Assembly: GCA_040143965.1 (NCBI GenBank)
Contig: JASJQH010006888.1
Coordinates: forward strand, 1-54,214
DNA length: 54,214 nt
Direction of reading: 5' to 3'
DNA from: Basidiobolus ranarum
Taxonomy: Eukaryota
Position numbers and translations under genes: made by a program. This document shows, piece after piece, positions 47,815 to 50,078 of the stretch; position 1 is the stretch's first letter, and the number at the start of each line of letters is the position of its first letter. The notes below the pieces were generated by a model. That model ran no database searches. It was not told the DNA's origin and saw only the letters and a program-made list of their open reading frames with translations.

Positions 47815-49103
47815 TGTTCAGTGTGTAGATGCTCAGGGTTATATTTTACTTTGACTCCCTTTCTCCCTCTCCCCCATACCTTCATATGACTACTGGGGCC
47901 TTTGCCTTCCACCAAATGTTAGTCCACATTCTTTTACTTAGAGCCACTCTGCTAGTTAAGCTTGGGAAATTATACAAGCCCCTAATCAAGGATTGGCTTC
48001 AAAACACCCACTCCCTAAAGTCCTCTAGCTGGTATGTCAAAGCTGACTCTTCACTTTAGACAGAATTGTCAATTAGGTTTGTCAAAGCTGAAAAGTCCAA
48101 CTTGGTAGCCCAAAGTCCTCTCCTGACTGTGTGAGCCAGCAATTTACAGATGAATACTACTATATTTATAACATAATCCATAGTTCTGTTCAATAATTCA
48201 TTATGTGGAGGGATATCACCTACAGCTTAGTATTTTCTATGAGCCATATATTTTTCTACACTCCAAAGAAATTCTGATTTAATGTAGCCTCCAACAAGAG
48301 ACAAAATATAAACTTGATTATCTGTTAAAGAGGTTCCATACAACTCACTGCCTTCCTTATTCTTGATCAGTTAGAACTAACTAAAATGAAAATTACACCA
48401 TCCTTGATAACTTTGCCTCCGCAAATTAGCACCAATTAAGATGCAGGAGTGAGTACATGGTAAACTTTGTAAAACATTGTGAAGTTATTATTACAATTAA
48501 AAATTCAGAAACAGTTTTTGTGATGAATTCCTATTTTTCTGGTAGAGTTTTTCACTTGCTGTTGGGTTTTAATATACAGGACTTGATCCTATTGTATAAT
48601 AACTACCGAAGCAGGAATGTATCTATAAGGCAGGGCTCAGCAGAGCATCAGAGTCTAAGGAGTCCGGAGTAAAACTTGCGCAAGTGCCAAACAAGTTCCT
48701 CCATTCACCAGTACGTTGATGATATAAAGTGATGCCCGGACATTTCTGGATGATCGGAGCCCAATTTCACCATAAATACAGGGAAATTTGATGAAGGCGA
48801 TTTCATGGTAATTCCGGGCTGATTCCAGTCATAGAATTGCCAATAAGCGTAGCTAAGTATCTTTATCCCCGCTTACGTGTCCGGGTAGCCATGAGCAACC
48901 AATAATATCACCAAAATAGAGTGACTGATTAGTAATTCCTCATTCATTGCGCTCACCAGTATTAGATCTCCATGTCTCAATAGATGAAGCAAATATCTAT
49001 AAAGTCAACGGAACTCGATCCAGAAACTACATTGTTCACTATCTCAATAAAACATCTTCCTCATTGCCTACTTAATCGGAGCTCAAGGAAAAAGTCAAAC
49101 ACA

Positions 49104-50078
49104 ATGCATCTCTCCAACCACTCCCTAATTGGCGACGCTGCCAAGATCCCCACCAGGACCCCTACTCCAGTCCTCTCTTTCAGCCCTGTCGTGCTTCCCT
49201 GTCCAGATCGCAGAGTCGACTTGCAATTACGCGTGTCATCCCCTTCTACAGGCAATGCCCTCCCGATAATCCTCCTCTCCCATGGCCACGGCCAGAGCAA
49301 CTACCTTTCCTCGCTTGATGGTTATAGCCCGTTGGCTGAATTTTGGGCCGGGCATGGTTTTGTGGTCATCCAGCCCACCCACCTCAGCTCGAAATCTCTC
49401 GGTATCAGCCTTGACGCCACGAATATCCGGGAGCTATTTTTAGATTCGCGTGTGCAGGATATGGTCCGGATTCTCGACCAGCTCGACGCTATTGAACAAG
49501 CCGTCCCTCTGCTCAAGGGGCGACTGGATAAGACTATGGTTGCTGTCGCAGGACACTCACTAGGCGCCATGACTGCTAGTATGTTGCTAGGCGCGAAGAA
49601 CACGGATCCTCGTGATGGAACAACGACGCAAATGGTCGACAAGCGTATTAAGACCGGAGTTATAATCGGTGGCACTGGAAGCGGCGGATCAGACCTTTCT
49701 GAGGCGGGGAAAAAGCTCGTCCCTTTTTACGGGCCAGACTTTAGCGAAATGAACACCCCTGCACTTATCGTCTGGGGGGATGAGGACGTGAGTCCGCACT
49801 TGACTGTTCGCGGTGCCGACTGGCATGAAGACCCGTACACATTTTCTTCAGGGCCCAAAGATTCATTCATGGTAAAGGGTGGCAAACATGGTTTTGGTGG
49901 TATTAGTGGGTGGGACGCAGGTGAGACGTTGGATGAGAGTCCAGAGCGATTGGCAGCGGTGCAGAGGATGACGTTGGCATATCTGAAGAGCCAGTTGTAT
50001 GATGGAGACAGAGCCTGGACAGAGGCATGTCAAGCCTTAGAGGGGCTTAAGGGGTTGGGCAAAGTTGAGAGAAAGTGA
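49104..50078 (+). CDS. Chlorophyllase-like alpha/beta hydrolase (324 aa)
   Basis: Intronless, with LPIILLSHGHG, FWAGHGFVVIQPTH, the nucleophile elbow VAVAGHSLG, ALIVWGDED (acid) and GGKHGFGGISG (His). The likely start is the second ATG (acaATG, 49104). Confidence 0.9.
   Translation: MHLSNHSLIGDAAKIPTRTPTPVLSFSPVVLPCPDRRVDLQLRVSSPSTGNALPIILLSHGHGQSNYLSSLDGYSPLAEFWAGHGFVVIQPTHLSSKSLGISLDATNIRELFLDSRVQDMVRILDQLDAIEQAVPLLKGRLDKTMVAVAGHSLGAMTASMLLGAKNTDPRDGTTTQMVDKRIKTGVIIGGTGSGGSDLSEAGKKLVPFYGPDFSEMNTPALIVWGDEDVSPHLTVRGADWHEDPYTFSSGPKDSFMVKGGKHGFGGISGWDAGETLDESPERLAAVQRMTLAYLKSQLYDGDRAWTEACQALEGLKGLGKVERK

Follow-up and report, generated by a model that had tools for sequence, protein, structure and literature searches.

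A probably transferred alpha/beta-hydrolase gene of fungal origin in Basidiobolus ranarum

Gene transfer between fungal phyla is already known as a kind of event. Transfers from Ascomycota into Mycena have been described with 31–263 verified genes per species (Harder et al. 2024, PMC11293592), inter-phylum transfers from Ascomycota have also been described for Armillaria (bioRxiv 10.1101/2022.11.10.515791), and the main text of PMC12592215 contains 19 fungi-to-fungi transfers. For Basidiobolus, transfers from bacteria have been described (Tabima et al. 2020, PMC7466969), and the other studies of the genus, in the portions available, deal with bacterial or interkingdom donors (bioRxiv 10.1101/2021.12.02.471044, PMC10386755); bioRxiv 10.1101/2025.03.31.646025 served as a background source.

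Here we describe a gene from Basidiobolus ranarum, a gut-dwelling fungus of early-diverging ancestry, which adds an unameliorated case to these systems. Its product is a probably functional esterase, and it is quite probable that the gene entered the Basidiobolus lineage horizontally from another fungus, recently enough to have retained a donor-like GC3. As in the transfers to Mycena and Armillaria, a single metabolic gene is nested among Pezizomycotina homologues; in contrast to these, the recipient belongs to the Zoopagomycota and the same sub-lineage also occurs in Mortierellaceae and Lipomyces. The case shares with those of Tabima et al. (2020), as far as these are described in the portions available, the host genus and an intronless gene among fungal neighbours, whereas the donor here would be fungal. 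We found no published report of the gene, which could still be listed in supplementary tables of earlier surveys; a search of supplementary file 1 of PMC12592215 for hydrolases found none, the matches being tree labels.

The locus and its base composition

The stretch of DNA that was analysed (the window) is a whole contig of 54,214 nucleotides (G000:C6888) from an assembly of 65 Mb in 13,754 contigs. The gene and the sequences that anchor it in the host genome are as follows.

46850..47260, + strand: glycine-rich repeat with a 102-bp unit, dispersed on many host contigs; left-hand host anchor
47786..48606, no strand: CpG-depleted left flank with 1 CpG versus 26 expected, single-copy
49104..50078, + strand: alpha/beta-hydrolase CDS, 324 aa, intact and intronless
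51311..52460, + strand: duplicate of the RRP12 3' end with DNA from downstream of RRP12; right-hand host anchor

The purine nucleoside phosphorylase (PNP, a housekeeping enzyme) encoded in the window is 88% identical to that of B. meristosporus and 81% identical to a protein labelled B. ranarum, which matches a PNP paralogue of the same genome on contig C7434. Identity to proteins from outside Basidiobolus is at most 60% among the best 120 matches listed, and from these identities the host is Basidiobolus (Zoopagomycota). The contig with the hydrolase CDS thus also carries ancestral host genes, namely PNP, the RRP12 duplicate and a tRNA.

The CDS lies in the interior of the contig, and host sequences (a tRNA-Leu, dispersed repeats and the RRP12 duplicate) are found to its left and right. 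To its left are a WD40 gene, which we take to be UTP18, the tRNA-Leu, and the glycine-rich repeat, which has an inverted partial copy at about 47530–47780. The CpG-depleted flank that follows is probably old, decayed host DNA; one CpG at most was found in 19 of 1978 host windows of the same 821 bp. To the right, 1.2 kb of single-copy DNA separates the gene from the RRP12 duplicate, which is 5'-truncated and contains stops, whereas its counterpart in G000:C227 (94% identity) has an open frame. The immediate flanks are single-copy in the genome and not repeats. Host sequences thus enclose the gene, and the stretch it occupies is rearranged and under low constraint. It is present in one copy; the genome also contains three distant, host-like genes of the PAF-AH type with 34–38% identity over part of their length.

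The CDS had been described as intronless by the first-pass annotation, and it is indeed one uninterrupted frame, collinear with close fungal homologues. A 364-aa frame starting at the in-frame ATG at 48984 was considered and rejected, as homology begins only at 49104, and the two ATGs are separated by a TATA-like box. The absence of introns carries little weight: according to the portion available of PMC7466969, 36% of the fungal-origin genes in Basidiobolus lack them.

With a GC of 0.539 and a GC3 of 0.574 the CDS is, as had been claimed, richer in G+C and in C/G-ending codons than its surroundings. The GC3 exceeds that of the 15 other window ORFs measured (0.235–0.413) and is outside the range of 72 host ORFs of at least 200 aa from 430 kb of the same genome (mean 0.387, sd 0.042, range 0.282–0.469; z 4.5). 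The triplets GGG, ACG and CCG, which the host avoids, are used freely. The claimed richness in CpG was not borne out: the observed/expected ratio of 0.78 is ordinary among the window ORFs (0.47–0.98; genome sample 0.73) and shows no enrichment beyond that of G+C. We also determined GC3 for 30 HSP70 loci of the genome (0.355–0.544), 29 of which are below 0.50. The frame at 0.544 indicates that a highly expressed host gene can approach the hydrolase value, and the GC3 excess is smaller when set against such genes. The data support an unameliorated, donor-like composition of the hydrolase gene. The transfer candidates of PMC7466969, as far as described there, do not differ from the host in codon usage or 5-mers; compared with these, an outlier of 4.5 sd looks like a younger transfer.

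We considered whether contaminating fungal DNA could have been joined into a Basidiobolus contig during assembly. The large number of contigs would be compatible with this, as would the fact that the exact protein was found on a single contig. Against an artefact argue the internal position of the CDS with host DNA on both sides and flanks which are single-copy rather than repeats, the absence of a Mortierella-type PNP from the assembly (best identity 59–63%), and the low GC3 of all but one of the HSP70 loci. HET or Fungal_trans_2 matches were not found either, which is a weak point because these searches had no positive control. An assembly chimera is therefore unlikely, and we see only a slim chance for it.

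Phylogenetic position and candidate donors

The protein search returned 2940 proteins among 8000 candidates, the best 120 of which were listed. The nearest among these is from Linnemannia elongata (82% identity), followed by Cosmosporella, Lipomyces kononenkoae and Pleurostoma (79%) and Neonectria (77%). An organism name is attached to 52 of the 119 listed non-self matches; we take 45 of these to be Pezizomycotina, 5 Mycena, 1 Lipomyces and 1 Linnemannia. Other Zoopagomycota and bacteria are not among these 52. B. meristosporus, the PNP of which is present in the same protein collection of annotated proteins, appeared neither in the best 120 (down to 63%) nor in 82 short matches, and none of the latter is a closer partial relative above 75%.

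From 150 aligned proteins a FastTree tree was calculated for orientation only. Three smaller sets, leaving out most redundant Xylariales and nameless rows, were analysed with IQ-TREE: 63 rows (quick tree), 36 rows (LG+G4) and 33 rows (LG+C20+F+G4). In all three runs the Basidiobolus protein grouped with Hypocreales, Pleurostoma, Ophiostomatales, Neoarthrinium, Lipomyces and Mortierellaceae, and this enclosing clade received an SH-aLRT of 99 (63 rows) and supports of 100/98 (36 rows) and 100/99 (33 rows). Six residues are common to at least 80% of the 42 clade rows and occur in at most 10% of the 107 other rows. The larger fungal group around the clade consists of Xylariales, Dothideomycetes, Lecanoromycetes and Mycena, the Mycena copies being nested among Dothideomycetes and Lecanoromycetes in the three IQ-TREE runs.

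Inside the clade, the Basidiobolus protein was placed with Stylonectria, Lipomyces and Mortierellaceae in the 63-row tree and as sister to the remaining 20 rows in the 36-row tree (90/88, not starred); this first-branching position superficially resembles the species tree. In the 33-row mixture-model tree its position is not settled by support. The end branch is of ordinary length (0.13–0.17).

The phylogeny that the first-pass annotation had proposed as a check thus places the Basidiobolus protein inside a clade nested among Pezizomycotina, in supported conflict with the species tree (clade 100/99). The alternative that an ancient fungal gene was inherited vertically and massively lost elsewhere could draw on the presence of copies in Zoopagomycota, Mucoromycota, Saccharomycotina and Pezizomycotina, and on the one tree with Basidiobolus branching first in the clade. 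However, a topology with the early-diverging fungi outside the Dikarya was rejected by the AU test (p 0.008 under the mixture model, p 0.026 under LG+G4). Vertical descent would also make an accessory enzyme far more conserved than PNP: Basidiobolus and Mortierellaceae are 82–84% identical in the hydrolase and 59–63% in the host PNPs. Furthermore, the gene is a GC3 outlier, B. meristosporus is missing among the best 120 matches in spite of its PNP being in the collection, and only three species of Mortierellaceae are in the 90% cluster, with PNP known from many. Vertical inheritance is largely refuted already, and we consider it highly improbable.

The distribution in Mortierellaceae is itself unusual. 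The 90% cluster of the L. elongata protein has five members, including L. gamsii and Podila horticola, and covers three species, while many more have a PNP on record. The hydrolases of Podila and Linnemannia are 93–95% identical, whereas the sequences representing the PNP clusters of both genera share 88%. Being patchy and over-conserved, the Mortierellaceae hydrolases look, from these comparisons, as if they had been laterally spread as well. Closest homologues in early-diverging fungi had been named beforehand as an argument against transfer if they came with a vertical topology; the Mortierellaceae proteins (82–84%) are indeed the closest, but their patchy occurrence, their excessive conservation and their nesting with Sordariomycetes show that they are not vertical orthologues.

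A direct transfer from a bacterium, the route usually reported for Basidiobolus, would agree with the intronless gene and with a family that is abundant in Actinomycetota and has homologues on 115 plasmid records, mostly of Streptomyces, Agrobacterium and Rhizobium. The named bacterial homologues, however, share 51–57% identity and not more than 57% over the full length, compared with 79–84% for the fungal ones, and the four plasmid genes measured have a GC3 of 0.79–0.93. A basal or direct-bacterial position was rejected in the AU test under the mixture model (p 0.0014), though not under LG+G4, where Penicillium was part of the outgroup (p 0.055). This route, too, seems hardly credible. Searches for fungal donor DNA in metagenome, prokaryote-genome and viral collections gave bacterial or distant loci only, two of the three scans having been queried with a single protein and not with an alignment.

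A transfer from a fungal source is therefore well supported by the sequence comparisons, and there are two candidates for the last donor. It may have been a Sordariomycete of the sub-lineage, or a Mortierellaceae mould which already possessed the gene, so that the gene would have passed from an ascomycete to Mortierellaceae and on to Basidiobolus. The second candidate, a refinement of our preferred reading, has the highest identity (82–84% versus 79%) and the shortest path distances in the trees, and a clade of Basidiobolus and Mortierellaceae was not rejected (AU p 0.34 and 0.41). On the other hand, Basidiobolus was sister to Mortierellaceae in no tree, this place being taken by Lipomyces (95/87, 33 rows). 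The identity is inflated by the short Mortierellaceae branches, and Mortierellaceae are about as near to Lipomyces (85%), Pleurostoma (82–83%) and Cosmosporella (82%). The rare shared residues do not favour this donor either (3 with Podila, 4 with Lipomyces). We regard a Mortierellaceae donor as possible, though somewhat short of an even chance. The original proposal of a recent, unameliorated transfer from an ascomycete is thus retained as to a horizontal, Pezizomycotina-rooted origin and the outlying GC3, and is qualified as to the immediate donor, which may be Mortierellaceae.

The family is widespread in soil bacteria, and in the scenario that we prefer its fungal branch would have diversified in Pezizomycotina. 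A sub-lineage otherwise of Hypocreales, Pleurostoma and Ophiostomatales would then have reached Mortierellaceae and Lipomyces as well, and from one of the two candidate donors Basidiobolus. Its integration next to the broken RRP12 duplicate, in the rearranged stretch rich in repeats and pseudogenes, would most plausibly have taken place when foreign DNA was captured by end joining.

The upstream region and possible borders

It had been proposed that the gene was transferred together with its promoter, on account of CGG/CCGG sites upstream of the CDS. CGG triplets are binding sites of Zn2Cys6 factors. The following features bear on this proposal.

48607..49103, + strand: region upstream of the CDS, present once in the genome; CCGG at 48664, 48736, 48814 and 48881, CGG at 48755
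48570..48592, + strand: imperfect direct repeat, left copy, with a 10-bp exact core at 48583–48592
50565..50588, + strand: imperfect direct repeat, right copy, core at 50579–50588
50449..50919, – strand: almost open frame (157 codons, 2 stops), possible pseudogene, GC3 0.36

The sites are present as described, except that the one given earlier as 48735 is at 48736. TATA-like sequences (TATAAAG) occur at 48723 and 48998. Between 48600 and 49103 there are four CCGG versus 0.82 expected (p 0.006, dinucleotide shuffles), all within about 220 bp (48664–48881); of 1970 overlapping host windows matched for GC, only 2 contained four. When all 4-, 5- and 6-mers are taken into account family-wise, 4–8% of 817 host windows contain an equally strong motif, and after this correction the cluster is marginal.

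We considered whether a block of about 2.0 kb (48583–50588), delimited by a degenerate target-site duplication, was transferred as a whole, with donor Zn2Cys6 sites of the CCGG type now being read by host factors. Besides the raw excess of CCGG, several observations are compatible with this: the 821 bp with only one CpG end sharply, CpG returning at 48607; when both flanks are aligned locally, the direct repeat at this boundary scores best; and the upstream DNA is unique within the genome. The direct repeat brackets the promoter, the CDS and 0.5 kb of downstream DNA. However, its shuffle p value is 0.02–0.17 depending on the search window, which was chosen post hoc, and terminal inverted repeats were not found between the flanks. 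In a k-mer comparison of low power the 500 bp upstream resemble the host (z –0.09 to –0.59), and a fall in GC from 0.57 to 0.38 occurs exactly at the ATG. Zn2Cys6 domains were matched 46 times in the host genome itself, so that no foreign origin has to be assumed for the CGG sites. A bacterial sigma-70 scan is irrelevant at this locus.

The right-hand copy of the repeat is moreover crossed by the broken frame on the minus strand. This frame contains 2 stops versus 9.6 expected (p 0.002, uncorrected for the choice of frame); it matched no Pfam family and has no other copy in the genome.

Of the proposed co-transfer of the promoter, the existence of the CCGG sites stands, while the marginal motif excess, the host-like upstream composition (at low power) and the host's own Zn2Cys6 factors weigh against it. 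We consider it doubtful that the promoter moved with the gene, and the same applies to the block described above; the left repeat copy is a possible border of such a block and only a lead. A more far-reaching version would be a cassette of gene and promoter of about 2 kb, delimited by the degenerate direct repeat, that moved as a whole between fungal phyla, a single allele lineage of the esterase having spread repeatedly in the manner of a bacterial resistance gene. Unrelated soil and litter fungi (Sordariomycetes, Lipomyces, Linnemannia/Podila and Basidiobolus) would be its carriers, Mortierellaceae would be a recurring donor of DNA to Basidiobolus, and the host's Zn2Cys6 factors would read imported CCGG sites. 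We regard this version as speculative and rather improbable.

The predicted enzyme and its significance

The first-pass annotation had named the protein a chlorophyllase-like hydrolase. The structure model (pLDDT 88.5, pTM 0.91) has a canonical alpha/beta-hydrolase fold, and the fold agrees with this name: the best matches are wheat chlorophyllase (PDB 8fjd, Z 25.3), the cutinase/PETase structures 8x6v and 4cg3 (GlacPETase, Z 24.9; Thermobifida cutinase, Z 23.9), Lp-PLA2/PAF-AH (5i8p, Z 23.7) and a ferulic acid esterase (5yal; Streptomyces feruloyl esterase, Z 23.0). The likeness is one of fold (Z 23–25); all five share 16–20% identity with the hydrolase, with an rmsd of 2.5–3.2 over 235–270 residues. 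The family score does not reach the name: chlorophyllase (PF07224) scored 24.6 bits versus a cut-off of 26, over residues 41–160 only. PAF acetylhydrolase II (PF03403) scored 26.2 bits versus a cut-off of 20, its best stretch being residues 136–160 in a model of 372 positions. In PAF-AH the acid residue follows strand 6, whereas in the hydrolase it follows strand 7 (GDED). Unlike these enzymes the protein has no evident secretion signal, a signal peptide not being obvious by eye.

No close sequence was found in the PDB and no NCBIfam family came near its cut-off; the Atlas clusters of the protein are named only alpha/beta-hydrolases. A characterised close homologue was not found in structure, family and literature searches.

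The G-x-S-x-G nucleophile elbow and the predicted triad Ser152-Asp228-His262 are intact, and G150, H151, S152, G154, D228 and H262 are invariant in all 24 aligned proteins. Together with an end branch that is not lengthened, the invariant triad fits a gene still under selection. By its modelled structure the protein is an alpha/beta-hydrolase serine esterase with a chlorophyllase/PETase-like fold.

Bacterial proteins called 'chlorophyllase' or 'alpha/beta fold hydrolase' and encoded next to TetR (WP_331742294.1, WP_331737301.1) have the same triad motifs and are 47–57% identical in alignments that cover about 90% or more of the length, but are situated outside the fungal clade and were named automatically. 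In three of the four bacterial loci read, the homologue is divergent from a TetR regulator; in the fourth it follows another regulator. A divergent TetR layout marks ligand-induced genes for detoxification or catabolic enzymes acting on small molecules. The likeliest role is that of a cytosolic enzyme hydrolysing a small ester or lactone which the fungus encounters in soil, litter or gut. If expressed, a hydrolase with the triad Ser152-Asp228-His262 would cleave a small hydrophobic ester or lactone, for example an antimicrobial or plant-litter compound, and may serve to detoxify or to use it.

If our preferred reading of a horizontal fungal origin is correct, Basidiobolus would have taken DNA from other fungal phyla as well, recently enough to keep the codon bias of the donor. 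The same sub-lineage occurs in three groups outside the Pezizomycotina; three recipient groups and a conservation above that of PNP between Podila and Linnemannia suggest repeated selection for one activity, and the substrate would therefore be worth finding. Should the upstream DNA be derived from the donor too, the locus would offer a direct test of promoter function across phyla.

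Sequences flanking the hydrolase gene

The stretches on either side of the hydrolase gene contain the following features:

45143-45160: short CCTAACCCTAACCCTA run, inside the contig and upstream of the WD40 gene
46850-47830: glycine-rich repeat with a 102-bp unit, including an inverted copy
50449-50919, minus strand: nearly open frame of 157 codons with 2 stops
about 53210-53400: dispersed repeat of ~190 bp, inside the duplicate at 51311-54214

The run at 45143-45160 is telomere-like. The inverted copy of the glycine-rich repeat is partial and lies about 250-800 bp off; relatives of this repeat were found on many host contigs, frequently at contig ends. 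The 821-bp stretch 47786-48606 is single-copy and contains 1 CpG versus 26 expected, and is possibly an old element that was methylated and then decayed.

For the broken frame downstream of the hydrolase, neither a Pfam match nor a second copy in the host genome was found. Either a pseudogene of host origin or a neighbour that was cotransferred with the hydrolase and has since decayed would be consistent with it.

Comparison with the host contigs G000:C227 and C471 identified 51311-54214 as a segmental duplicate. It includes a 5'-truncated pseudogene of RRP12 with 94% identity to G000:C227, along with further DNA that is 83-86% identical.

Other host genes

Contigs G000:C2264, C8655, and C1003 carry three distant hydrolase genes of the PAF-AH-like type (L002-L004; 370-396 aa), with hydrophobic N-termini and a host-like GC3 of 0.36-0.39. 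They are predicted to be an older secreted family. The maximum GC3 among the measured host genes, 0.544, belongs to a partial HSP70 frame (L123, G000:C658:9681-10871).

The hydrolase family in other fungi

The copies of Mortierellaceae (Linnemannia and Podila; P0002, P0121, P0122) and Lipomyces (P0004) are sisters with a support of 95/87. They are patchy and over-conserved, and probably represent separate interphylum transfers. The Mycena copies (P0025, P0051, P0057, P0077, P0119) are situated among Dothideomycetes and Lecanoromycetes, with the M. sanguinolenta copy separate from the remaining four, suggesting that Mycena gained its copies by more than one additional transfer.
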